Assembly: GCA_010015805.1 (NCBI GenBank)
Contig: ML978125.1
Location: forward strand, 1 to 64,000
Reading direction: 5' to 3'
Length of the DNA: 64,000 bases
Source of the DNA: Rhizodiscina lignyota
Taxonomy: Eukaryota
Shown here: positions 1 to 17,866 of the stretch, piece after piece
How the letters are laid out: every line of letters begins with the position of its first letter
Position numbering within the stretch: the first letter of the stretch is position 1
Program-made: the position numbers and the translations under genes
Notes under the pieces: model-generated
Seen by the model: only the letters and a program-made list of their open reading frames with translations
What the model was told of the DNA's origin: nothing
Databases searched by the model: none

Positions 1-1755
1 TTAGCATACCTCTTAATCGTCTTACCCTACTACCTCACGTTTAATAGCTTCTTATTCGATATCTCGCCCGTCTCTCTCCTATTTACATAACATATAGCTA
101 TAAAACCTACAACTTCTAGCTGTACTACCTTTTACGCCTCCTAAATAACTATCTATACTATATTATACACCCTAACTAACTCCTACTCCCTTCTCGCATC
201 TATTATACTACTACTTTTACTATTACTTTTACTATTACTTTCGCTGTTACTACTTTTACTACTACTATTATCGCTACTATCGTCGCTACTACTACTATTA
301 CTATCGCTATCGCTCCTATCTCTATCTACTAGCATCTCCGCTATCTTGACTAACTACCTACGGTTAAACCCCTCTAAATACCTCGCCTATCCCGCCCTCC
401 TTAACTACATCTATAGTATATATCTATTCGTGTTAGCCTAGACTATTACCCTCTCCTCCTTAGCCTCTTACTTTAACCGCTTGTCTGCTAATATAAAAAC
501 CCTCTCTATCTGCCGCCTCGTAACGCGCTATGTCTACTTATCCCTATTAACTGTACTTTCTCCTTTATCTCCCTTACCCTTACCCCCTAGCCTCGCCGTT
601 ACCTTAAACAACCGCTACTACCCTCCTATCCTAAAAAACTACTAGTAATATACACCTACCGTCTATATCTCGTGCTCTTACGCCTCCGCAATAGCTAACC
701 TCGTCGCCCTACCGCGGCCGCGCCTGTTTACCTACCTATACTCCCTCTTATAATACTCCTATATATACTGTACCCTATAGTGTATAAATCCGTACTTACT
801 ATACCTAAACCTATTATCCTATAACTACAAACTGGCTAATAGCGCTAATATAGGCTCTAGGAACATAACGCCCTTATATACGTCTACTACATCTACTATA
901 CTAGCCGCTACACTCGCGATCGCCTTATAGGCCTTTACTATCGTCTTAGCCCTATACCTCTTATCTAAATACGATCGGACGTTAGCCTTAATAATAGCGT
1001 ACCTGTACTACCTGCAAATAATTACCTTGTACTATAGTAAATACTCGAAATAATCGCTAAAACCTGCTATCTCTCCCCTAATCTTTTAATCTCCCTCCCT
1101 CCTTAGTTCTACTATAGGTTCTTCCTTAACTAACGACTAGGGCAACTATTAAATAGCCTTCTAAATTTAATAATGTGTCTTATTATCTACTTAAATCCCT
1201 AATATTCTCCCCTTTTTCTCATTTCGTAGCTTTAACGCTTTAGCCCTAGCCGCGCTACGCGCGCACGCGCCCGCCCTACTCAAAACACGCGACTGCGAAA
1301 CTACTTCGTACTGCGGAAACGGGCGTGTACTACCCTATTACCCTACTATATTCGACTACAGCTTACCCGCCTTTAACTACAATTTACTTACTACTATCCT
1401 ACCTACCTACTACGTCCGACTACGACTTGTTTTACTTACTACATACTACACTAAACTACTCGCTCAGATTACGTGACCGCGAACACGAAAACTCCTACAT
1501 ACTATAGACTACGGCTATAACGTAACAACGCGCCGTAACCCTAATAGTTCTAACTACATAGCTAGATTAGGCGCGACTAGGACTATATTTCTACATGCTT
1601 AAAACCCGCCTACAGGCGCTACTTTACTACTTTCTCACAAATTACTTTAACCCTAAACCCTAAATCACCCCGACCCCCTCCTTATCCTGCCGGCGCTAAA
1701 TTTGTTAGTAGGCTTAAATCACTTCGAGTCGAAGTAATTATATAGTACAAGTTAG
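1..1755 (-). mobile_element. TLH (telomere-linked RecQ helicase)-type element, copy A (5' part; runs off the left window edge)
   Basis: Aligns with 4169-5923 at offset 4168. The minus strand from about 1070, after RIP reversion, reads F.HL.QYKVIICRQCRYAV...HL..H...C..C...HC..EHGW...CQQFF..GG.QRLFEV, which is the DUF3505 pattern. Confidence 0.8.
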
Positions 1756-4700
1756 CCTAACTAACTTCTACAACTACTTCCTTATGTCTGTCTTCTGTAT
1801 CGCTACCTACCTCCTAAACTCTTCTTTCTCCGCCTGCTACCTCCTACGGGCCGCTACTAAACCCTGCTCGGCTAGCTCCTACAATACCGATTCGAACATT
1901 AAAAACTTATGCTACTCCTTACTAACCTTCTAAAACATGACCTGCTGCGCTATAGTATAGAATAGCAACTTATTAACGCCCCTACTATATATACCCTCCC
2001 CTATCTACGCGCTATAGCCTGTCTACAAATAGAATCCGACCTCTCTCTAATTAAACCCGTTAATATGCTGCCCCTCCCCCTTCTCGTCCTCTCTCTACTA
2101 CCTACTATCCTTATCTCCTCTCGTAATAGCTTAGATAATAGCCTTATTATTAATATACTGCCTGTAAATCGCCTTGCTACTATACCTCTAATATATAATA
2201 TTTATCCTTACCCCTAAATATGTTATACTAGCCTTCTAGATCGCCTTTCTAACCCTATCCGTGTCCTAATACACCGTCTTTATTAATAGTAGCTACTATC
2301 TATCCTCTCTATTATCCCTTTCTTCTCCTCCTCCTCCTTCTTACCGTCTTCTCCCTCTTATCTTTAGGCCCTGCTACGCCTATTCTAGCTTTAGCTCCTA
2401 TAAAAACGGGCTGCGGCCGCTTCTACTACTACTAGCGATATTTCTACTATTATTGCCGGCGATATTACCGCTACCATCTCCTTTAACCTCTACCGCCGCC
2501 ACTACCGCCGCTACTATCGATATAACGGTAGAAACACTCTCTAACCTGTCCTAAAACAGCCTTACCAACTATAAATCGTATAATAATAACGACCTGACCT
2601 CGTGTAGCAAATACCGGTAGATTACCTTCTCCCTACTACTAAACCCTATACTCTTATAGTACTATACTATATATACTACTATCCTATCCTCTACGAAAAT
2701 GCCTCTACCCGCGCTGTCCACGCCGTTCTTATACCGTACCGTAACGATCTCTATACCCCTAGCCGGCTATCCTCCTATTATATGCATTAATACTAATAAA
2801 TCCTGCTTATACGCGTCTAAATCCTTCTTATACTACTAGATCCTATCTTTCTTCTATACAACCGGATCGCCGCTATTCTACTACTACCGCTACTACTACT
2901 ACTACTAGCTTCTATAGATTATATTATGCGTAGCCTTAGTATTAACAAACTCCTTACGTAACTGCCGCTCCCCTATAACTCTGTCTACTATCTACTTACT
3001 ACTATCGACGCCGCTAAACGCCTCTCTATTCCGCCTATTATCTACGAAACTCTACCTAACCCTTATCTCCACTATATTATCTACTATCTAGTCTATCTTT
3101 ACTAGTAGTAACCGCATCGTCGTATCCGCGCTATTAGGCCGGCCCTCGTTATCGACATGTAACAATAATAACCTCCTCTTAAACCTTAACTATAACGCGT
3201 ATACTAACCTATAGATTATCGCCTGTAAATCCGGCATACTAAAATTAATATAGCTGTATAATAACCTATCGCTAACCTAATCTACTACTCCGTCTACTAC
3301 TATACTATAATATACCTTTAACCTGTACGTCCTTAATATTAAAACCTAATTTATCGGCGTTAGCTTGCCGCTAAATGCGGTTAACGTTATAAACCTGTAT
3401 ACTATCTCCTACACTAACTAGAAATAGGTTAGCGCCTTCTTTAATGCCTCTACCCGGCTAAAACCTTACTCTTCCCTTATCTCTTTAATTACTACTTCCC
3501 TTATTAACTTCGCATAGTATAAAACTAATATCTTAGTGACTGTAACGACTGCTAACAATGCTCGCGTCGCCTTAGACAGCCCTTTCTACGCGTAATCCTC
3601 ATCTAACCCTAAAACCGCCAATCCGCTGACGATGCCGTTTGTATATGCGTCGTCCTGCACGTCGTGGTCTAACAATGCGATCAAAAACTCTAATATCGCC
3701 GCTTCCACCTCACCGTCTTCTTTATCTCCTTCCCTTTCTTCCTCTCCTTACTCCTACTCTTACTCCTACTCTTGCCCCCGCCCTTATACCTTCTTACCCT
3801 ACTCCTCTTCACGCCTAATAGCCTGTCTAACCTATATTAATACTCTAACCTATCTACTAGTTAATCTATACGGTAGTCTTTTCTACCTAATACTATTTTC
3901 TGCCTCTTCTCTCCCGTCCCTCCCTCCTCGCCTTCTTCCCTCTCGCCTGGCCCTTTCGATCTCTATACGCATCTCCTTATCTGACCCCGAATCCCTTTCT
4001 GAATCTTCCTCTAAATCCTCTTCTGCTGGCCCTGTCGACGCGTCCCCCGACCCGCTATTACTATCGCTACTACTACTACTCCTACTACTCTTCCTCCCCC
4101 TCCCCCCTTTTATCGCCTTTAGCAAACCCTATATCCTCTAAATATAACAAACTACCTTATACTAAACCTTAGCGTACCTTTTAATCGTCTTACCCTATTA
4201 CCTTACGTTTAACAGCTTCTTATTTAATATCTCGCCTGTCTCTCTCCTATTTATATAATATACAGCTATAAAACCTACAACTTCTAGCTATACTACCTTT
4301 TACGCCTCCTAAATAACTATCTATACTATATTATATACCCTAACTAACTCCTACTCCCTTCTTACATCTATTATACTACTACTTTTACTATTACTTTCAC
4401 TATTACTTTCGCTATTACTACTTTTACTACTACTATTATTACTACTATCGTCGCTACTACTACTATTACTATTACTATCGCTCCTATCTCTATCTACTAG
4501 TATCTCTACTATCTTAACTAACTACCTACAGTTAAACCCCTCTAAATACCTTGCCTATCCCGCCCTTCTTAACTACGTTTATAGCACGTATCTATTCGTA
4601 TTAGCCTAGACTATCGCCCTCTCCTCCTCGGCCTCTCGCTTCAACCGCTCGTCTGCCGACATGAAAACCCTCTCCATCTGCCGCCTCGTGACGCGCTGTG

Positions 4701-5238
4701 TCTGCTTATCCCCATTAACTGTACTTTCTCCTTTATCTCCCTTACCCTTACCTCCTAGCCTTGCTATTACCTTAAACAACTACTATTACCCTCCCGTCCT
4801 AAAAAACTACTAGTAATACACGCCTACTGTCTACATCTTATGCTCTTACGCCTCCGTAATAGCTAACCTTATCACCCTACCGCGGCCGCGCCTATTCGCC
4901 TACCTATACTCCCTCTTATAATACTCCTACATATACTACACCCTACAGCATATAAATCCGCACTCGCTATACCTAAACCCGTTATCCTATAACTATAAAC
5001 TGGCTAATAGCGCTAATATAGGCTCTAGGAACACGATACCCTCATATACGTCTACTATATCTACTATACTAGCCGCTATACTTACGATCGCCTTATAGGC
5101 CTCTACTATCGTCTTAGCCCTATACCTCTTATCTAAATGCGATCGGACGTTGGCCTTAATAACGGCGTACCTGTACTACCTGCAAATAATTACCTTATAC
5201 TATAGTAAATGCTCGAAATAATCGCTAAAACCTACTAT
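1756..5238 (-). pseudogene. RIP-inactivated TLH-family ORF (DUF3505 plus recombinase-like middle region), truncated
   Basis: Start ATG mutated to ATA at about 5238. Many TAG/TAA stops fall at Gln/Trp codons. The readable frame ends ...DIRKQLQKLVR at the 1756 junction. Confidence 0.8.
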
Positions 5239-5923
5239 CTCTCCCCTAATCTTTTAATCTCCCTCCCTCCTTAGTTCTACTATAGGTTCTTCCTTAACTA
5301 ACGACTAGGGCAACTATTAAATGGCCTTCTAAATTTAATAATACGTCTTATTATCTACTTAAATCCCTAATATTCTCCCCCTTTTCTTATTTTATAGCTT
5401 TAACGCTTTAGCCCTAGCCGCGCTACGCGCGTACGCGCCCGCCCTACTTAAAACACGCGACTGCGAAACTACTTCGCGCTGCGGAAATAGGCGTATACTA
5501 CCCTATTACCCTACTATATTCAACTACAGCTTACCCGCCTTTAACTACGATTTACTTACTACTATCCTACCTACCTACTACGTCCGACTACGACTTGTTT
5601 TACTTACTACGTACTACGCTAAACTACTCGCTCGGATCACGTGACTACGAATACGAAAACTCCTATATACCGCGGACTACGGCTATAACGCAACAACGCG
5701 CCGTAACCCTAATAGTTCTAACTATATGGCTAGATCGGGCGCGACTAGGACTATATTTCTATACGCTTAAAACCCACCTACAGGCGCTACTTTACTACTT
5801 TCTCGTAAATCACTTCGACCCTAAACCCTAAATCACCCCGACCCCCTCCTTATCCTACCGGCGCTAAATTTGTTAGCAGGCTCAAATCACTTCGAGTCGA
5901 AGTAATTATATAGTACAAGTTAG
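1756..5923 (-). mobile_element. TLH-type element, copy B (longest; 3'-truncated just before the expected helicase domain)
   Basis: Same right terminus (...GTACAAGTTAG) as copy A. Relic ORF carries DUF3505, WLRRAGWARHLEG, DN.AE.RVGWSF.DDRRN, TGGQPARG.E, YHK and IHRYLP..VG motifs, typical of fungal telomere-associated RecQ proteins. Confidence 0.8.
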
Positions 5924-8900
5924 TACCGTACTACGTATACTACTATCCTATCCTCTACGAAAATACCTCTACCCGCGCCGTCCGCGCTATTCTTATACTA
6001 TACTATAACAATCTCTATACTCCTAGCTAGCTATCCTCTTATTATATGTATTAATACTAATAAATCCTGCCTATACGCGTCTAAATCCTTCTTATACTAC
6101 TAGATCCTATCTTTCTTCTATATAACTAGATCGCTACTATTCTACTACTACTACCGCTACTACTACTACTAGCTTCTATAGATTATATTGTGTGTAGCCT
6201 TAGTATCGACAAACTCCTTATATAACTACTACTTCCCTATAACTCTGTCTACTATCTACTTACTACTATCGACGCCGCTAAACGCCTCTCTATTCCGCCT
6301 ATCATCTATAAAACTCTACTTAACCCTTATCTCCGCCGTATTATCTACTATCTAGTCTATCTTTACTAGTAGTAACCGCGTTGTCGTATCCGCGCTATTA
6401 GGCCGGCCCTCGTCGTTAATATATAATAATAATAACCTTCTCTTAAACCTTAACTACGACGCGTGTACTAACCTATAGATTATCGCCCGTAAATCTAGTA
6501 TACTAAAACTAATGTAGCTATATAATAACCTGTTACTAACCTAATCTACTACTCCGTCTGCTACTATACTATAATATACCTTTAACCTATACGTCCTTAA
6601 TATTAAAACCTAATTTATTAGCGTCGGCTTACTACTAAATGCGGTTAACGTTATAAACCTATATACTATCTCCTACGCTAACTAGAAATAGGTTAGCGCC
6701 TTCTTTAATGCCTCTACCCAGCTAAAACCTTACTCTTCCCTTATCTCTTTAATTACTACTTCCCTTATTAACTTCGCGTAGTATAAAACTAATATCCTAG
6801 TAACTGTAATAACTACTAATAATACTTATATCGCCCTAAACAGCCTTTTCCACGTATAATCCTTATCTAACCCTAAAACCGCCAATCCGCTAACGATGCT
6901 ATTTATATATGCGTCGTCCTATACGTTATAGTCTAATAATACGATTAAAAACTCTAATATTACTACTTCTACCTTACTATCTTCTTTATCTCCTTCCTTC
7001 TCTTCCTCTTCTTACTCCTACTCTTACTCCTACTCTTGCCCCTACCCCTATACCTTCTTACCCTACTCCTTTTTACGCTTAATAGCCTATCTAACCTATA
7101 TTAATACTCTAACCTATCTACTAGTTAATTTATATAGTAGTCTTTTCTACCTAATACTATTTTCTACCTCTTCTCTCCTATCCCTCCCTCCTTACCTTCT
7201 TCCCTCTTACCTAGCCCTTTTAATCTCTATATATATCTTCTTATCTAACCCTAAATCCCTTTTTAAATCTTCCTTTAAATCCTCTTCTACTAGCCCTATT
7301 AACGCGTCCCTTAACCTACTATTACTATTACTACTACTACTACTCCTACTACTTCTTCTCCCTCTTCCCCCTTTTATCGCCTCTAGTAAACCCTATATCC
7401 TCTAAATATAATAAACTACCTTATACTAAACCTTAGCGTACCTTTTAATCGTCTTACTTTACTACCTTACATTTAATAGCTTCTTATTTAATATCTTACC
7501 TATCTCTCTTCTATTTATATAACATATAGCTATAAAACCTACAACTTCTAGCTATACTACCTTTTACGCCTCCTAAATAACTATCTATACTATATTATAT
7601 ACCTTAACTAACTCCTACTCTCTTCTTATATCTATTATACTACTACTTTTACTATTACTTTCGCTATTACTTTTACTATTACTACTTTTACTACTACTAT
7701 TATTACTACTATTATCGCTACTACTACTATTACTATCGCTATTACTCCTATCTCTATCTACTAGTATTTTCGCTATCTTAACTAACTACCTATAGTTAAA
7801 CCCCTCTAAATACCTTACCTATCCTACCCTCTTTAACTATGTCTATAGTATGTATCTATTCATATTAGCCTAGACTATCGCCCTCTCCTCCTTAGCCTCT
7901 TACTTTAACTACTTATCTACTAATATAAAAACCCTCTCTATCTACTACCTTATAACGCGCTATATCTACTTATCCCTATTAACTGTACTTTCTCCTTTAT
8001 CTCCTTTATCCTTACCCCCTAGCCTTACTATTACCTTAAACAACTGCTACTACCCTCCTATCCTAAAAAACTACTAGTAATATACGCCTACTATCTATAT
8101 CTCGTACTTTTATACCTCTATAATAGCTAACCTCGTCGCCCTACTACGGCCGCGCCTATTTACCTACTTATACTCTTACCTATAATACTTCTACATATCC
8201 TCCTATGTGTAGTATATATGTCCGCACTTATTATACTAATAACTATTATCCTATAACTATAAACTAGCTAATAGCGCTAATATAGGCTCTAGATACTAGA
8301 CCTTCTCGCGTATAACTACGATGTCTTCTACTATAATACTACTTACTTCTACTATAATCGCCCTACGCGCGTCTACTATTAACTTACTCTTATACTTCTA
8401 GCTTAAATGTAAACTTATACTACTCCTAATAACGGCGTACCTATACCTCCTATAAATAATCGCCTTATACTACGGTAAATACTTAAAATAATCGCTAAAA
8501 CTTGCTATCTCTCCCCTAATCTTTTAATCTCCCTCCCTCCTTAGTTCTACTATAGGTTCTTCCTTAACTAACAACTAGGGCAACTATTAAATAGCCTTCT
8601 AAACTTAATAATACGTCTTATTATCTACTTAAATCCCTAATCTTCTCCTCCTTTTCTTATTTTATAGCTTTAACGCTTTAGCCCCTAGCTATACTACGCG
8701 TATATACCCGCCCGCCTACCCTGCTTAAAACACGCGACTACGAAACTACTTTCGTACTACGGAAATAGGCGCGTACTACTCTATTAACCTACTATATTTA
8801 ACTATAGCTTACCTACCTTTAACTATAATATACTACCTACTATCCTACCTACTTACTACGTCCGACCGCGACTTATTTTGCTTACTACGTACTACGCTAA

Positions 8901-9207
8901 ACTACTAATCCTACTTAGATCACGTGACCGCGAATATAAAAACTCCTATATACTGCGGACTATAGCTATAACGTAATAATGTACTATAACCCTAATAGTT
9001 CTAACTATATAGCTAGGTTAGGCGCGGCTAAAACTGTATTTCTATATACTTAAAACCCGCCCCTAGGCGCTACTTTGCTACTTTCTCGCAAATTAGGTTC
9101 GACTCTAAACCCTAAATCGGTCTAACCCCCTCTTTATCCTACTAGCGCTAAATTTGTTAGTAGGTTTAAATCAGTTCGACTTGAACTAGTCGTATAGTAC
9201 GAGTTAG
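5924..9207 (-). mobile_element. TLH-type element, copy C (truncated at the YHK motif)
   Basis: From 5924 it aligns with copy B from about 2660. Relic start at about 8508. Terminus ...GTACGAGTTAG at 9207. Divergent patch at about 8170-8430. Confidence 0.8.
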
Positions 9208-10227
9208 GGGTTTATAGAGCTAATTCTTATAGCGCCGGAAAGTGCGCGTAGAGGCGCATATTACGCTATTAAAACTGCGGCATTCCGTCGACGCGAAGGC
9301 GGGATATATAGTAGGGAAGAAGCTAGTCTGTCTTTTAGGCGCGCGGTAGTTAATCCTTCTATAGCCTTAACGTTAAATCTCCGCTAAGATTAAGGACATC
9401 TTAGCGCGCCTAGGGGGGTTACGGCCCTACTAAAGCCTATCTTCCTATAGCCCCTATTAGTAATATAGAGGTTGCCTAGGATTGGCCGCTATATTGCTAG
9501 AAGCTATTCTACTATATATAAAAGAAAGCGTAAATAGCTAGAGTAGGGTTAGTACCTTTATATTTAATTATAACCTTATATAGACAGACTAGGCTTACCT
9601 CTTAGCTCCTTTTCTGTCTATCTCCTCCTCTCCTTTTTAGTCCGCTTAGCGATAGTTTATAGTCTTTAGACTACCTCTAGACTTGCGTTTGTAGCTTAGG
9701 TTACGTGATATTTCGGAGAGAAAGACTTAGTTCTTACCTCTTAAAGGGTCTAGGGCCTTAAGCCTCTTACTAGCTTACTACTACTAGACTAAAGGGCTAT
9801 AAGAAGCTTAGTCGCTTCTTATATAGGTCTTTTAAGTGCCTTTAGCTAACTTAAAGCCAACGCGCTAACTGTAATAACATTATAAATAGTAGTACTCTCT
9901 TATAGAAGAGAGTCGACTTCTAATAGCTTTAGTTAAAGTACTAAGGTAGGATAACTACTATAGCTACCGCCTACTACTAGAGTAAAGGGTCCCCCTCTCT
10001 CGGCTAGTTCCTTTAGTTAATCGCGTATAAAGTAGGATAGGCGAGCGAGGGCGAAGGGGCTTAAGGGCTAAGAGGGTATATAGAGGTTAATACGCCCGCC
10101 TCTACTTCTACTAGGGGTACTACCTTAAGTTAAAAGAATATTTCTCTAGACTCTTACCTCTATACTTTACCTTACCTTACTAGACTCTATCTATCTATTA
10201 ATAAGGTCTTATATCCTTTTCTAGGGA

Positions 10228-10470
10228 GTACGCTTAGTGCGTAAGCTTATATACAACGCTCTTTAAGCGCTCTTTTAAAAGCGTACACTTAGTAAACTAG
10301 CTTTAATCTAGCGCTTTCTTAGCGCCTCTCTAAAGGGGTATACTTAGTATATAAGCTTATATGTAACGCTCTTTAGGCGCTCTTTTAAGAGCGTGTACTT
10401 AGTAAATTAGCCTTAATCTAGCGCTTTTTAGGCGCCTCTCTAGAAGGGTATACTTAGTATACAAGCGTTA
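10228..10470. repeat. 55-bp tandem repeat with 110-bp higher-order period
   Basis: Units start at 10228, 10283, 10338, 10393 and 10448 (gtacgcttag/gtatacttag...). Alternate units are more alike. Related copy at about 10822-10895. Confidence 0.8.
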
Positions 10471-10500
10471 ATATAGTGCGTCCTTACTACCCTCTTCCTT

Positions 10501-11050
10501 AGGGAGGATCCTACCTTAGCCTTTACTAGCTTTCGACCCTTTTAGGTCCTTTACTAGATCTAGAGGGCCTAGAAGGCGCGCCTTAGCTACTTCTCCTCTT
10601 TTAGAGAGGATTCGACCTCGGTCTTTACTAGCTTCTAGGCTATTTTAGGTACTTTACTATATTTAAAAGGCCTTAAGGCTATAAATAAGGAGGTATATAT
10701 ATAGCCCTACTTAGAGAGGATTCGACCTTAGTCCTTACTAGCTTCCGGCTTTTAAGATACTTTGCTAGACTTTAAGCTAGGTAGAGAGTTACGATCTAGA
10801 TATACTTAAGGAACTTAGAAGCGTACTTAACGTACAAGCTTGTATTTAACCTTCTTTAGGCGCCCTTTTAAGAAGGTACGCGTAGCGCGTAAGCTAATCT
10901 CTACTAGACTAGATAGAGTTACTACTATTATACTTCTTAGTTATCCTACTATCTTTACGCGATTTTATAGGAAAGAATAGTAGGCTTTATTAAGGGAGAT
11001 ATATATAGCCTTACTTAAAGAGGATTCGACCTCGGTCTTTACTAGCTTCT
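10501..11050. repeat. Dispersed ~32-bp motif AGAGAGGATTCGACCTCGGTCTTTACTAGCTTC, four copies
   Basis: Copies at about 10501, 10603, 10713 and 11017. Confidence 0.75.
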
Positions 11051-11249
11051 AGCCTTTAAGGTACCTAGCTAGCCTCTTCTATATAGGGTATACTACTACT
11101 ACTAGTAAAGTAGTAAAGCGATTGTTTACTACTAGGGCTATTCTTTTATACCTTGTACTAGTACTCTACTATACTACCTATAGTAACGATCGCTCTTAGC
11201 AATCTACTCCTCCTACTCTACCTTACTCTAGCTTATCTAGGGTAGTAGC

Positions 11250-14200
11250 GCTAGAGGCCTACTTAGCTAGTACCTCTTCTATAGCTACGCCTAGTAGTTA
11301 TATAGCTCCTTATTACCTACTATCTTAGCTAGAGCTACTACTACTACTATCCTCTTTGTCTATAGTAGCCGCGCTACTATAGCTCTCCTCGCTACTTACG
11401 CGTTTATATTAAGGCTAATAATACTAATTAAATACTATATCCGCCCTCTACTCTTACTCTTCTTCCTTATACCTAATAGGCCCGACTACTTATCCGCGTA
11501 TAGGAGTAGCTAGTAGAACCTAAGTAGGTACTTATATAGGTACTAGTTAAATACCCTTCCTAGCTCTACCTCTCCTCTTTTACGCGGAAGGAGCTTAAGG
11601 CTAGCCCTTACTACGCTAAAAAGGGCATAGTACAACTTCCTCTCGTACGTACCTAAGTACGCGTAGCTATTATTGCCTCTACTAGGGCTAAGTAAGATAG
11701 TAGCAACGTTTAAAGGGTATAGGGTCCTAGTCTTATTGCCTAATATAAGGTAGAAGTCGTCGCGTATAATCTTAAACAGGTACTTATAGTAGAATAGCTA
11801 TAGGCCCTAGACCGCGCGCTTATAGTACTCCTCTAGTACCTACTTACAGGCTATGCTAATAACGTTAGCGCGGAGCTACTATAAGTAGATATACGCTAGC
11901 TAGCGTACTATACGTCCTACTATCTTCTCGTTACGCTAGTACTTTCTAGCCTACGATAGCGCTAGCTCCGCCTGTATACGCGCGTTAAAGAAGTCTTATA
12001 CGCGGCTACTACGCTAGAAGTACTTTCTATATAGTATGCTACTACTAAATAGCATATAGTCCGTTACGTTCGACTAGAAGGCTAGACTAGCCTACTTAAA
12101 CCGTAGCTCTAGCTAGTAGTAGCTATATTATAGTAGCGTATTATAGAAGCCTAGCCCTACCTATACTCTCTACTACCTATTCTACTTATCGCCTACTACC
12201 TACTTACAACGGCTCTACTATAGTAATAACTCCCTCCGTAGTTAGTAGCTACTAAGTACGAAGTAGAGGTAGTATAGGAATATAGTTATTATCTTCGTCT
12301 ATTCCTATAGTATTAACCTACTATAGTACTACGCTAGGACTATTTCGAAGCCGGCGGCGAACTTATTAGCGTAGTATTAGACGAAGCCTAGGTAGATATT
12401 AGTCCTAATTAGCTACGCGTATAGCGGGTAGTCTATAAGTAGGAGCTCTTTCTCTTACTACTACTACTACTACCGCTACTCCCTCTCCTCTTATAGCTAG
12501 GGGCCTTATATAGCCTTATAGAGCTTTAGGCGGTCGATAAGGCCCTAGAATAGCGACTAGCGTATCTAGTACTCTTCGCGGATACTAAAAGACTTTTACG
12601 TAGAGTCTTGAAGCGTAGTATTAGTATAGTGCTTACTAGCGTAGTACGTATCCCTTAGTATAGCTACGTCTCTAGAACGGCCTCTTATAGCGCTATAGGC
12701 CCCCTAAAGGACTACTAGGTCTATAGCTAGGTCCTTAAGGTCGCTATTAGCGAATAGCATCTACTTTATAGCGTCTTACACCTCTTTTACTAACGTGTAG
12801 AACTAGCTATAGATAAGGCCTCTCTAGTAGAGCTTAAAGCGTGCTAGTAGTACGCTTATAAGGCTATAGGCATTATAGAGCATGTTTAGCTTAAAGTACT
12901 ACTACCTACTAGTCCTAGTAGCTAGAAGGCGGCTATTATATATTTAGTACGTATAGCACTCTAGGTAGTACCGCTTCTAGTAGTATACCTACGCCTTATC
13001 GTCGATATACTACCGCTATAACTAAAGTAGGCTTACTTCTAGGCAGATCTCCTTCGCGAGGTCGATATAGAAGTAGTCCCTATATATAAAGGCGAGGTCG
13101 AGGGCGCGCTTAATATATGCCTTAAAGTAGCATATCGCGTCTAGTAGTATAGGCTATACCGCGCTTATTTTAAAGCGTAGCTTTATCCCCTTTATAGAGA
13201 AGAAGAGCTATAAATCGCGGAAGTTGCTAAGCTATAGCAAGCCTCTAATAGTATCCTAGATAGTAGCCTAAATGCGGTCGAGGTATAGTAGCTAGATATA
13301 GTAGCTAATACTCTACTACGTCTAGTACCCCTTCCCTCTTACGCTTTAGGCCTCTATCTAGTAGGCCTACGCGCTTACTCACGAGTACGCGGCGCTAGCG
13401 GGCAGGTACTAGACGTAGTGTATACTATAGTACTCGTAAACTACGGGAAGAAGGATATTATTAAGCTAAAGTAAGTACTAGCTACTAGTTAGCGACGTAA
13501 ACTTCCCCTCGTACGCGTACTATATATATAGGAACAGTATATACACGGTAATCTTATCTACGCTAGATACGCGGCTAAGCTAGAAGTAGGGGACGTTACG
13601 GAGTATAGTAAGATAGGACTATAGAGCGTAGGTAGTATTATACTCGTCCTACTACCCTATAAATACAAGCGTCTTTAAATAGATATTAGTAGTAATATTC
13701 TGCGTTAGTATTAGTACTAGCTATAGTAGAAGCCTACTACGGGCTATAGTAAGGCTACTACTAAATCCTAGGAAGCTATTAATGTTAAAGGCAACCTAGG
13801 CGCCGATAGCGCGTATCTCCTCTACGTATAGGTAGACGCGCGCTAAGAGGGCTAGACGGCGCTAGCTACGTCTTTAGCAGATCTACTAGAGGCCTACGAG
13901 CTGCTACTACTAGTCCTATTATAATATAATGCTATAGAAGGTAGCCTGCTACTATACTTCTATTAGCTGCTCCTACTACGCGAGGCGGTCTAGCGTAATA
14001 ATATCGGGTAGTAAGAGTATATTAAGAAAGGCCCTATCGTTAGATAGGTCCCTTAGGCTATAGTACTTACTATTAACAGCTACTACTACTACTTCGTGCT
14101 TATAGCGCTTATCTACGTACTCCTCTTCTATATAGCTATAGAAGCTATATTATAGCTAGTTATATAGCTTTTAGACTGTATAATCGTATATTAGGAGCTC

Positions 14201-15395
14201 CTTATCCCCCTCCTCTTCTCCTCTCTCCTATATACTACCTACTAGTATACTAAGATCCGCGCTTAACGCTACGTCTATAGCGTCTATAGCTACTATAACT
14301 ACTACTACTATACTAATATTAGCATCTTAACCTAAAGCTACGTCTACTACTACTACCCTAGGATCTTCCGCTAGTACTACTAGCCCTACTACTACTATAA
14401 CCTATACTATATCTACTACTATACCCTATTTATCTACTACGCGTATATTAAGGTCTATATCTACTAGTATATTATTAGTACTTAGTACGTCTACTACGCT
14501 TAATACGTCTAATATCCTAGTTTATAGTAGGCTAGTAGAGCTAGTAACTTTAGTAGTAGGGGGAGGGCGCTATAGCGTGTAGGGTATAGTTAGGATAGTA
14601 AGGTTTAGTTAACGCGAAGGTAGGTTAGGTAGAAGAGAGATCTATAGCGTAAAGAGGATACTAGTAGCTATACTTATAGCTATACTTATAGCTAGTAGTA
14701 GTAATAGTACTAGTAGTAGTACTAGTAGTAGTACTAGTAGTAGTACTAGTAGTATAGTAGACGAGGACGCTATAGTAGGTAAGAGGGCTTAGAAGAACTA
14801 GTAGATACTATGCTATCCTACTATTAGTAGGGACTTTAACTTTAACTTTAACTTTAGCCTTAACTTTAACTTTAGCCTTAGCTTTTCCCTAGCTTTAGCT
14901 CTAGTCTTAGTTCTAATAGGCCTACGCGCTACTACTACTTCTAAGTATAGTAGGTTTAGGTAAGTAGAGAGGTACGTTTATACTATTGCTATTATTGCTA
15001 CTACTACTACTACTACTACTACTTCTTCCTCTACTACTATTATTAATAACGACAGTAATAATAATAATAGCAATAGCTACTATTACTAGTATAGCTAGCT
15101 ATACTCCTCTACCTCCTCTACCTCTTTCCTCCTATCCTACTACTACTACTCCTACGTATTAAGGCTAAGGCTAAGGCCTTATAGCTACTAGCTAACGCTA
15201 GTAATACTACTAAGTATACATATAGCGTCTAGTTCGTTAAATAGGCGCTTAGCGATAGTATTAGCCTACTATAACTACTCTATAGTCTAGTATAGCTATT
15301 ACGCCTCCTCCTCCTATTATAGCTCCCTCTTCTCCTTCTAGCGCGCCTAGTACCGCTATACACGCTCTATAATACCCTTATACAGACTAAGGGCA
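11250..15395 (-). pseudogene. RIP-inactivated large ORF of an uncharacterised fungal repeat-associated family
   Basis: RIP-reverted motifs in order: ERV.RY.ARQKE; low-complexity linker; GFHGC.EEEH; FDIDSFLGFSSSLAVAR; LRDVPHF.LGRV; YVQHLPAS; DFRDLQLFFSAKGTKL; FYIDLAKEIC; GGLIYSQFY.SVKE; SFGIREEHRI; GLGF.NTL..YGYCWLEPR; HWLLPY...RMWYSI. Ends are approximate. Confidence 0.7.
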
Positions 15396-15690
15396 TATAG
15401 GTTAGTAGTATTAGTTAATAGGAGCTATCCCCTCTTAGGGCCTAAGGCTAGTAGCGCTACTACTAGTACTAGTACTAGTAGTAGTAGTAGTAGTAGTACT
15501 AGTAGTAGTACTATCTCTCCTCTTATAGCTACCCTACTCCCCTCCTACCCTCTATATATATAGTATCTCTAACCCTCTATCTATCTATAGCGTATAGCGT
15601 AATAAAAGAGATAGTAGAGGATAAGCGATTAAAGAGAGGAGAGAGAGGATAGGAGATAGGTAGATAGCTACTACTACTACTACTATACTT

Positions 15691-16390
15691 ATTATATAGG
15701 TATTATAATCTAAAATTAGATTAGAGCGCCTACCCCTACTACCCTACTCTATAAGTAGTATAGTAGTAGTATTATAGTAGTAGTAGTAGTAGTAATAAGC
15801 GATAGAAGGCTAAGAAATACTATATTAAAATTAGAGAGGAAAGCGGAAGAGGGCGTAGAGTAGCTACTTATACCTTTATTTCCGCTCTATTAACGCTACG
15901 CGCGCGTACTAGCGAGACTTTACGCTCTACTATAGCGCTTATTACGTAGGCGTTACAATTTAGCGCTAGCCCTCCGCCCTTTTACTCTACAAGCAGCGAA
16001 AGTAGCGCTAGGCGGCGCGAGGCCTTAAATAGAGCGAGAATAAAAGCGTACGCAGCTACTCTACGCCCTCCCCTACTCTTCTCTCTAATTATTATATAGT
16101 ATATACTATCTCTCTCGCGCGCGCGCGCGTAGCGAGCTACACTCTTAACCCTAGCTTATAGTTACGTAGGTATTATAATTTAGCGCTAGACCTCTACCCT
16201 AAAAGTAGCGCTAGGCGGCGCGAGGCCTTAGATAGAGCGAGAATTAAAGGCGCACATAGCTACTCTACACCCTCCCCTACTCTTCTCTCTAATTATTATA
16301 TAGTATATACTATCTCTCTCGCGCGCGCGCGCGTAGCGAGCTGTACTCTCGTCTCGACCCCTAGCTCGTAGTCACGTAGGTATTACAATT
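15691..16390. repeat. Iterated terminal repeats: ~210-220-bp direct repeats, ~75-bp inverted repeat and a 20-bp motif in four copies
   Basis: About 15999-16180 matches about 16202-16390. About 15818-15891 is the reverse complement of about 16028-16101. GTCACGTAGGTATTACAATT variants at 15691, 15941, 16161 and 16371. Confidence 0.85.
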
Positions 16391-17866
16391 CACCCCTACG
16401 CCTCGCCCTCTCCGCCGGCGACCTCTCCAACTTTGCCATACTTACTATACTACCACGCCGCGAGCTATTTAGTAAACAAGACCTACCCTCTACTGCCTGT
16501 GCCCGCCGCTCGCCGTCCCGCTCTTTTTTTCCCCTATTTAGGCCCGCCGCGCGCCTGAGCCCTAAGCCGAATCCGAGCCATAGAAAAGGGGCGGAGAGAT
16601 CGATGCCGGATAGAGTAAATCCGGCTCAGCTCATTAAATCCGCGCGTCCGATATCTCTCATCCTTCATAATATCTCTCATTACTGCCTCTCTGAAGAGCC
16701 CTCATAGCACGTCCAGTCTAATGTCTGGGCATCACGTCTGTTTGACAGCTTTATCTCTCCGTCTTTGCTTCGTTTGAGCAGATTTGGCAACTTTGCGCGA
16801 AGCTCTGTTCCTTGATCGCGGTGGAGTTCCGGTGGAGCTCCGGTGGACTTCCCCGGATTAGTTCTTTCTTCTCTCGTCACAATTGTGGTCAACTCAATCT
16901 AGATCCTTGTTCAAGGGCTTAACAACAACTTGGGTCATTCATTAATCGGCAATCCTCGGCGGATTCGGCTCTGATTCGGTCGTATACGGTGCTCAGCCGA
17001 CAGGTTCTGATTCAGGACTCCTTGGACAATCTTGGTTCATGATAGCGAATACCTATGCAGCGACCAAAGAAGTTGAAGCTTGTCCTGGGCATGCCCTGAT
17101 TCAAGTCTGAGTCAACATGCTCTACATTGCAACCTTGTTGGTTGTAAAGCCCAAGACACCATCCAAGACACTATCAGCAAGAAAACGGAAGAGAGCCTCA
17201 TCTCGCTGACCAGAACTCATTCCTGTCCGTATACCCAATCCGTCGGTAGAAACCAATGCATGGCTTTTCGGTCCACAGCATCTTGCATATGAAAGTCTTG
17301 TTGGTGCCCAGGGAAGTATTTCCAAATCGTTCCCATCTTTCTCGTCGTGTCTTTGCTATTCGTTCCATTTCCCCAATTTCTTCTCGCTTGTCTGTGGGTC
17401 TAGACTCTAGACTGGTTTGAGCCTTGCGGCCGCCCGGGGACCGTAGCCCAGATTCTCGGTAAATGTACACCATTACAACTTGATAACCATTGGATGGAAG
17501 AGCTAGGGCAAATTGTCAACCTTAAATGATCCTTCCCGGACACGCTAACATGAGTGGACCGCCCCACTTCTCCACACGCCGCAAAATTAGCTCAAACCTG
17601 ACTCGCCAACCCCAGAGTTCTCCGCGGGCATGGTTCTAGGCTTATTGGCAGTGGTTCGACCTCATCTTAACAGCTTGTTACCTCAAGCCACGTCTTATCG
17701 TCCTCATCCCCTCCTTTGTGGCTTACCATACCCTCGGTTGTCTCTGGGAAGGATCGGGAAATTGAAATAGAACGATATAAGAGAGTGTGTATCCCTCAAT
17801 GTAATCGTTCTACAAGGATCGAATTCTTCTCGCGCGATAACTAGGCCTTCCAAATCTCATGCAGTC

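Follow-up and report, generated by a model that had tools for sequence, protein, structure and literature searches.

Three telomere-linked helicase (TLH) units lie head to tail at the start of the window (the whole 64 kb stretch of DNA analysed here), and each ends in an array of four short half-sites in which a single position has changed in concert in one of the units. As judged from comparison of the unit copies, this concerted change at position 7 argues for recognition of the half-site by a protein over pairing within a hairpin. We propose that a sequence-specific protein, most likely the OrsD fingers of the element itself, docks on this array at the centromere-proximal boundary of the TLH unit, and we put the probability of this reading at roughly 0.45. 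The 23-nt dyad described in the first-pass annotation would then be the inverted pair of a four-site array, made up of two inverted and two direct 12-13-nt half-sites.

Three truncated TLH units

Self-blastn resolved positions 1-9207 of the window into three copies of a single unit (A, B and C) arranged head to tail, all RIP-mutated and 3′-truncated. The matching segments were 1-1755 = 4169-5923 = 7433-9207 and 2657-5923 = 5921-9207, which define the following units.

1..1755, minus strand: TLH unit A; the window start cuts the unit, and the 5′ flank and first part of the gene are kept (self-blastn)
1756..5923, minus strand: TLH unit B, 4168 nt; the gene is cut just before the helicase domain
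5921..9207, minus strand: TLH unit C, about 3287 nt, with its gene cut within the recombinase-like domain (self-blastn, tblastn)

The right end is common to all three units (...GTACAAGTTAG; in unit C ...GTACGAGTTAG) and their left starts differ. On the plus strand all three end in ...GTTAG, and the base that follows varies (C, T or G). Over 1755 nt, 146 transitions and not a single transversion separate unit A from unit B; that the differences are all transitions is a signature of RIP. The region 1-9207 is AT-rich, with a GC skew of about -0.5 to -0.6, G being far rarer than C on the plus strand, and its mutation load appears strand-asymmetric.

When TAA and TAG on the minus strand were read as Gln, a long frame was obtained with a match to OrsD (PF12013, E 2.2e-07). 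A search of 1.84 billion representative proteins gave 1023 relatives at E ≤ 0.001, the closest of which was P0001 (1737 aa, 47% identity). DEAD and Helicase_C domains were found by Pfam in P0001 and in five more tested relatives, and OrsD was matched in five of these six proteins; the RecQ_Zn_bind match of P0001 was weak and under the Pfam cutoff. A profile made from ten relatives matched RecQ helicases among solved structures at E 3e-65. The genes are those of telomere-linked helicases. Searches with tblastn mapped P0001 aa 35-375 to 1085-3 in unit A, aa 35-1092 to 5253-1759 in unit B and aa 35-823 to 8523-5920 in unit C. Each unit has thus kept its 5′ flank and lost an unequal length from its 3′ side, and the helicase domain is present in none.

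Contigs from one sequencing run (X1) that match the TLH body (window 1671-4676) were covered at depths of 1100-1300, compared with 127 in the unique flank (9179-10000), and differed from the window mostly by A>G and T>C. The sample therefore probably holds about ten less-mutated TLH copies. No variant at the dyad was among the variants listed for this run.

Unit C is followed on its right by a further block of repeats mutated by RIP (9208-16400), among them tandem repeats of 55 nt at 10242-10476 and repeats of 105 nt at 16041-16349. An Rfam search of 1-16000 gave 0 matches. Over the whole window CCCTAA occurs no more often than expected (31 against 31.4).

Joins between units

At their join, units B and C have 3 nt in common (TAG). 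The sequence CCTAACT at 1756-1762, considered as telomere-repeat filler at the join of A and B, was rejected as such and is RIP-changed gene body: the letters of a less-mutated X1 contig at these positions yield CCTAACT by RIP-type transitions alone, and the P0001 match reaches 1759. The X1 contig continues beyond 1763, past the left edge of unit B. Both internal joins are therefore direct, with telomere repeats at neither of the two. Two joins are a small sample, but they fit better with a defined DNA end having been joined to a TLH body that was broken than with copying through telomere tracts, of the kind that spreads yeast Y′ elements. From the gene orientation in M. oryzae and the stacking pattern, the telomere side would be the left of the window.

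A four-site array in the last 120 nt

The half-site AAATCACTTCGA(C) occurs four times per unit, all within the last 120 nt, twice in direct and twice in inverted orientation. The inverted copies (S1 and S2) form the dyad, and a telomere-like sequence lies between the direct copies (S3 and S4).

1717..1739, no strand: 23-nt dyad of unit A, half-sites S1 + S2, AATCACTTCGA-G-TCGAAGTAATT
5885..5907, no strand: 23-nt dyad of unit B, half-sites S1 + S2, with the same letters as in A, AATCACTTCGA-G-TCGAAGTAATT
9169..9191, no strand: 23-nt dyad of unit C, AATCAGTTCGA-C-TTGAACTAGTC; arm position 6 is G/C, not C/G, and the centre is C
5807..5819, plus strand: direct half-site S3 of unit B, AAATCACTTCGAC; equivalents 1639-1651 (A) and 9090-9103 (C, AAATTAGGTTCGAC)
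5819..5832, plus strand: telomere-like (CCCTAAA)2 between S3 and S4; equivalents 1651-1664 (A) and 9103-9116 (C)
5830..5842, plus strand: degenerate direct half-site S4 of unit B, AAATCACCCCGAC; equivalents 1662-1674 (A) and 9114-9126 (C, AAATCGGTCTAAC)
5908..5923, minus strand: terminal 16 nt up to the exact shared edge, starting CTAACTTGTAC in gene orientation; equivalents 1740-1755 (A) and 9192-9207 (C)

The first-pass annotation had described a near-perfect 11-bp dyad close to a fixed end, and its description was confirmed. In A and B 10 of the 11 arm pairs are complementary, and the lone mismatch is a TpA that would pair as TpG; the dyad ends 16 nt short of the end common to the three units, as located by self-blastn. 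The compensatory pair that it reported is also present, arm position 6 reading C/G in both A and B but G/C in C, and the centre base differs as well (G in A and B, C in copy C). These arm changes are transversions and so lie beyond the reach of RIP, as had been argued, whereas the differences between A and B are transitions throughout. Copy C has 7 Watson-Crick pairs out of 11 (manual count).

The dyad taken by itself is less distinctive. In composition-matched simulations (n=100, 9207 nt), dyads with 11-nt arms, at most one mismatch and a loop of up to 3 nt were expected 0.48 times per 9207 nt, and at least one was present in 32 of the 100 simulations. The bare dyad is therefore not beyond chance. 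Its fold as single-stranded DNA is weak (-4.2 kcal/mol, z -1.9) and was equalled by 7 shuffles out of 200. A 13-nt inverted repeat, 5744-5756 / 5908-5920, 85% complementary, flanks the whole terminal module and may be due to chance.

The half-sites as a set gave a different result. Searching all 64 kb with a RIP-tolerant form of the half-site, AAATYASYYYRAS, gave 7 matches where 0.26 would be expected, each of them inside the final 120 nt of a unit; no shuffle out of 100 reached 7. Position 7 of the motif is C in all four sites of A and in all four of B, and G in all four sites of C. Over the last 120 nt, B and C differ by five transversions (B positions 5813, 5836, 5890, 5896 and 5902), every one of which falls at position 7 or at the dyad centre. 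Since G is found at position 7 in all four sites of C, the compensatory pair amounts to two of four parallel changes. The other two lie outside any stem, which suggests that a recognised sequence, and not arm symmetry alone, has been conserved. No tandem array of the HAR type was found in the terminal module, where the sites are dispersed over 120 nt. The array lies approximately 540-640 nt upstream of the TLH gene start inferred from tblastn.

Divergence of the two variants in the OrsD fingers

When B and C were aligned over all that they share, 411 transitions, 42 transversions and 20 indel columns were counted. None of the transversions falls in 2657-4913, a stretch of 2257 nt of gene body that includes the recombinase-like coding region as far as C extends. 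Most transversions were instead concentrated in a short island.

4914..5178, minus strand: transversion island of 265 nt, with 31 non-RIP transversions between B and C, in the OrsD two-finger domain (P0001 aa 60-148); A equivalent at about 746-1010

The remaining transversions comprise 6 scattered in the 5′ flank and the 5 in the terminal module. By codon position (1/2/3) the island transversions are distributed 10/13/8, indicating that they are not mainly silent. They affect both predicted finger helices, which follow the two Cys-x2-Cys knuckles; the zinc ligands of OrsD are conserved among relatives. The corresponding helices of C2H2 fingers read DNA, and we take the altered residues to include the canonical DNA-reading positions. 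Before RIP, the two variants would thus have been identical except for the fingers and one base of each copy of the boundary motif. On the sequences of these two types we read this as co-variation of a reader and its site.

As the finger domain differs and the recombinase-like coding region is free of transversions, the fingers are the likelier reader, and we infer that the OrsD fingers read the half-sites. The link between fingers and sites is a single contrast, of A/B type against C type. The two sets of differences share one 1-kb segment on the 5′ side and may have arrived jointly, with no functional connection, by recombination with another TLH variant. A model of OrsD (P0001 aa 31-199; pLDDT 89.7) contains two beta-beta-alpha knuckles joined by helices. 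Comparison of this model with solved DNA-binding folds gave no convincing match (Foldseek E ≥ 0.42); in a wide VIA search the top match was the ORC-interaction domain of Sir1 (Z 5.0), and a viral zinc finger scored Z 4.0. In view of the one contrast, the possible exchange of a block and these structural comparisons, DNA binding by OrsD is put forward as an inference. In the one paper examined among those that mention DUF3505/OrsD, no binding site is described.

The recombinase-like domain

In intact relatives the central domain takes up, in its predicted structure, a tyrosine-recombinase-like fold. It was invisible to sequence searches of Pfam and the PDB and was detected by fold comparison only. 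The model (476 residues) has a mean pLDDT of 70.6, and the stretch with the His and Tyr is below 50. With Foldseek the best match was Cre (E 0.017), and ranks 1-17 were all Cre or its variants. VIA-align gave an archaeal Xer (4a8e) at Z 11.4 (rmsd 3.5, 179 aligned) and XerH at Z 10.6; 44 chains had Z ≥ 8, and those listed were tyrosine recombinases or topoisomerase IB. The protelomerases TelA and ResT scored Z 4.6 and Z 3.4. R789, K824, R952, H1007 and Y1016 (P0001 numbering) are invariant in all ten aligned relatives. The sites differ between B and C but this domain does not, which makes it an unlikely reader of position 7. A literature search returned no paper uniting a telomere-linked helicase with a tyrosine recombinase.

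Upstream regions of relatives

A metagenome scan with the N-terminal TLH alignment gave only four loci, with short upstream parts, and a scan of viral sequences with a TLH N-terminal alignment gave none. One of three independent relatives has a dyad and half-site module. This is L001, an unmutated TLH relative with two 23-nt dyads, AATCAGTTAGG-G-CCTTACTGATT and AATCGGTTTG-GGT-CAAACCGATT, of 11-1-11 form with the core AATCRGTT, sitting in paralogous 44-nt modules that differ by two compensatory pairs. One half-site recurs as an additional exact copy. The core AATCRSTT, defined after the L001 dyads had been seen, has five matches in L001, all within 122-278 (0.45 expected; 0 of 200 shuffles). 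The modules of L001 and of the window resemble each other only weakly over 34 nt (p 0.04-0.11). Within the one element L001 there are half-sites of two kinds, and a strict reader acting alone would not account for both. At the start of the L001 contig (1-110), upstream of the dyads, are six 13-nt tandem repeats (CCCGTAAAGATG-like), a position that recalls the HAR-C array of M. oryzae.

No such module was found in L002 (432 nt upstream) or in L004/L003 (800 and 183 nt). L002 has a mini-dyad, AATCA-GT-TGATT, at 363-375, approximately 70 nt ahead of the TLH start codon.

Covariation of the arms, which had been suggested as a sign of selected symmetry, was seen in an alignment of the dyads (A3). 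Paired cells made up 94.5% against 83.6% in shuffled alignments, with a score of 0.491 against 0.247 (0/500), but the count is biased, as the L001 dyads were picked for being dyads and G-T was scored as a pair.

Possible functions of the array

If the array is a docking platform for OrsD, two OrsD protomers would bind head to head on the dyad, and more on the direct sites. Docking would bring two fused domains, tyrosine-recombinase-like and RecQ helicase, to the edge of the element, and the domains so positioned could create or process a defined DNA end, of the kind seen joined to broken TLH bodies. The purpose of docking may be the creation of an end for transfer, or autoregulation. A more far-reaching version, which we consider speculative and rather unlikely, is that TLH units are self-mobilising chromosome-end cassettes. 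In this scheme OrsD fingers would read type-specific sites, and the recombinase-like domain would cut at the fixed edge 16 nt away and attach the end so made to any broken chromosome end in the manner of a topoisomerase, with RecQ assisting.

The array could instead be the promoter or operator of TLH, with no role in defining or moving the edge; its binding protein would be a transcription factor of the host or, in autoregulation, TLH itself. The distance to the inferred gene start would suit such a function, and dyads are typical of dimeric factors. In the accessible part of the M. oryzae description, 181 bp separate the end of the repeat array from the start codon of TLH; a telomere-dependent regulatory role is suggested by the authors, and no function is assigned (PMC1635262). 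A host factor would, however, be identical for both variants in one genome, so that a concerted change at four sites is unexpected. Moreover, the array adjoins the exact edge of the element in the window and, as far as that description extends, in M. oryzae, which regulation alone does not need. We regard purely regulatory sites as rather unlikely; autoregulation by OrsD overlaps with the docking explanation. A function residing in the dyad itself, as a hairpin or cruciform or as the crossover core for the recombinase-like domain, with selection maintaining arm complementarity, is close to what the first-pass annotation had proposed in placing the symmetry under selection for a recombinase or resolvase or for a hairpin. 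Part of that proposal holds: the changes are non-random and not of RIP type, and the element appears, from modelling, to encode a recombinase-like fold. One compensatory pair in the window, two between the L001 modules, and pairing and covariation above shuffles in A3 also favour it, the A3 pair count being biased. The remainder fits poorly with the identical base change in two direct half-sites outside the stems, with the weakness of the present hairpin, perhaps with an arm gap of 1 nt against the 6-8 bp overlap of known tyrosine-recombinase cores, and with a recombinase-like coding region that stayed constant while the sites changed. The edge 16 nt outside the dyad likewise speaks against the dyad as a crossover or hairpin-resolution site, and we judge this class of explanation distinctly unlikely.

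It is also conceivable that the dyad has no function. It would then be a chance quasi-palindrome, its matched changes would stem from template switching in and among the short repeats, and the 5′ end of C would simply have come from a diverged TLH variant. The expected number of bare dyads agrees with this. Quasi-palindrome correction is a known mutational process that could make matched changes, and the mosaic of differences between B and C shows that recombination between variants took place. Four parallel G/C differences at one motif position, in a 120-nt segment with no other transversions except at the dyad centre, are difficult to reconcile with such an origin, as are the restriction of the motif to the terminal module and the similar layouts in L001 and, from what is available of its description, in M. 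oryzae. A functionless dyad thus seems quite improbable to us. A resemblance to a Helitron 3′ end had also been raised; on such a reading the dyad would be a hairpin near a rolling-circle terminus, and the tandem copies would be 5′-truncated. The fixed end with a nearby dyad and the variable truncation opposite it recall such elements, but the terminus is TTAG in all three units and not CTRR. The hairpin is 16 nt from the end and not 10-12, and the next base (C, T or G) does not correspond to A-T insertion. The gene lies on the minus strand, opposite to the Helitron norm, as the same annotation had itself pointed out. Its observation that no Rep was present was upheld too: relatives carry OrsD, DEAD, Helicase_C and RecQ_Zn_bind, and Pfam found neither Helitron Rep nor Pif1 families at E ≤ 1 in any of ten relatives. 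Termini and protein content refute the Helitron reading, which we consider scarcely credible.

TLH regions occur at most chromosome ends of many fungi, crop pathogens included, and their sharp inner boundaries, with the repeats found there, have been unexplained since they were first described. The window offers a natural 'specificity swap', in which otherwise identical variants differ in their fingers and in one position per motif copy, and this allows a concrete and cheap test of a boundary-reading protein. The spread of TLH regions to new chromosome ends becomes a question of binding and cleavage. If the cassette scheme were true, a broken end would acquire a telomere together with a helicase gene in a single step, the units would represent an undescribed class of eukaryotic DNA element, and the scheme would account for TLH boundaries that are exact and abut unrelated sequence in several fungi.

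Comparison with known systems

Helitron 3′ hairpins and protelomerase palindromes also place a dyad near a DNA end, but in termini, strand, protein content and distance from end to dyad the window units do not fit; the unit end lies 27 nt from the dyad centre, and not at the centre as in a protelomerase site. Iterons with their Rep proteins, and the subterminal repeats of transposons with their transposases, are alike in having multiple short sites near an end and joint change of site and reader. They differ in that the window element has neither a replication initiator nor a transposase family, and the co-change here is one variant contrast.

The core and accessory sites of tyrosine recombinases, such as loxP, FRT and dif, provide a closer parallel. 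FRT has a third, direct element, and the window likewise combines inverted elements with extra direct copies, in an element whose protein is predicted to include a recombinase-like fold. Tyrosine-recombinase cores have a 6-8 bp overlap between the inverted elements. The arms of the dyad are 1 nt apart, and its 25-bp symmetric stretch can be re-parsed as 9-7-9. In contrast to these systems, the edge of the window units is outside the dyad (by 16 nt in all three copies), and the recombinase-like domain does not co-vary with the sites.

Yeast Y′ elements and the X core resemble the window units as subtelomeric helicase-coding units in head-to-tail stacks. Y′ copies have telomere-repeat tracts between them and spread by homologous copying, whereas the window joins lack telomere repeats (0/2) and the units are truncated at different points.

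The closest likeness is to M. oryzae; in a literature search, TLH, subtelomere, palindrome and helicase were combined only in Rehmeyer et al. 2006 (PMC1635262). The part of that paper available to us reports that the TLH gene has its 3′ end towards the telomere and that an upstream repeat block forms a distinct 'near boundary'. The boundary of TLH regions there is exact and falls at either the first or the second C of CCTAACCAGTAATA, a 23-bp imperfect palindrome lies in the HAR-D repeat upstream of the TLH gene (Table 1), and TTAGGG-containing repeats are found nearer the gene (PMC1635262). The palindrome letters differ from those of the window, with only TTCG...CGAAG in common when compared by eye, and M. 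oryzae has tandem HAR arrays, in contrast to the single boundary unit with direct half-site repeats in the window. In its arrangement, the window unit read in gene orientation runs from CTAACTTGTAC through a 23-bp imperfect palindrome and (TTTAGGG)2 to the gene. On the evidence of the same excerpts, HAR-C/HAR-D and the window array are alike in lying upstream of a TLH (RecQ-type helicase) gene, in a discrete edge at C/CTAAC (the window units ending in ...GTTAG on the plus strand), in a palindrome of 11-1-11 form with central G and one mismatch, as in window A and B, and in telomere-like motifs between palindrome and gene. Since its layout equals that of the M. oryzae boundary, as far as the latter is described there, the array in the window appears to belong to a described but unexplained kind of TLH boundary.
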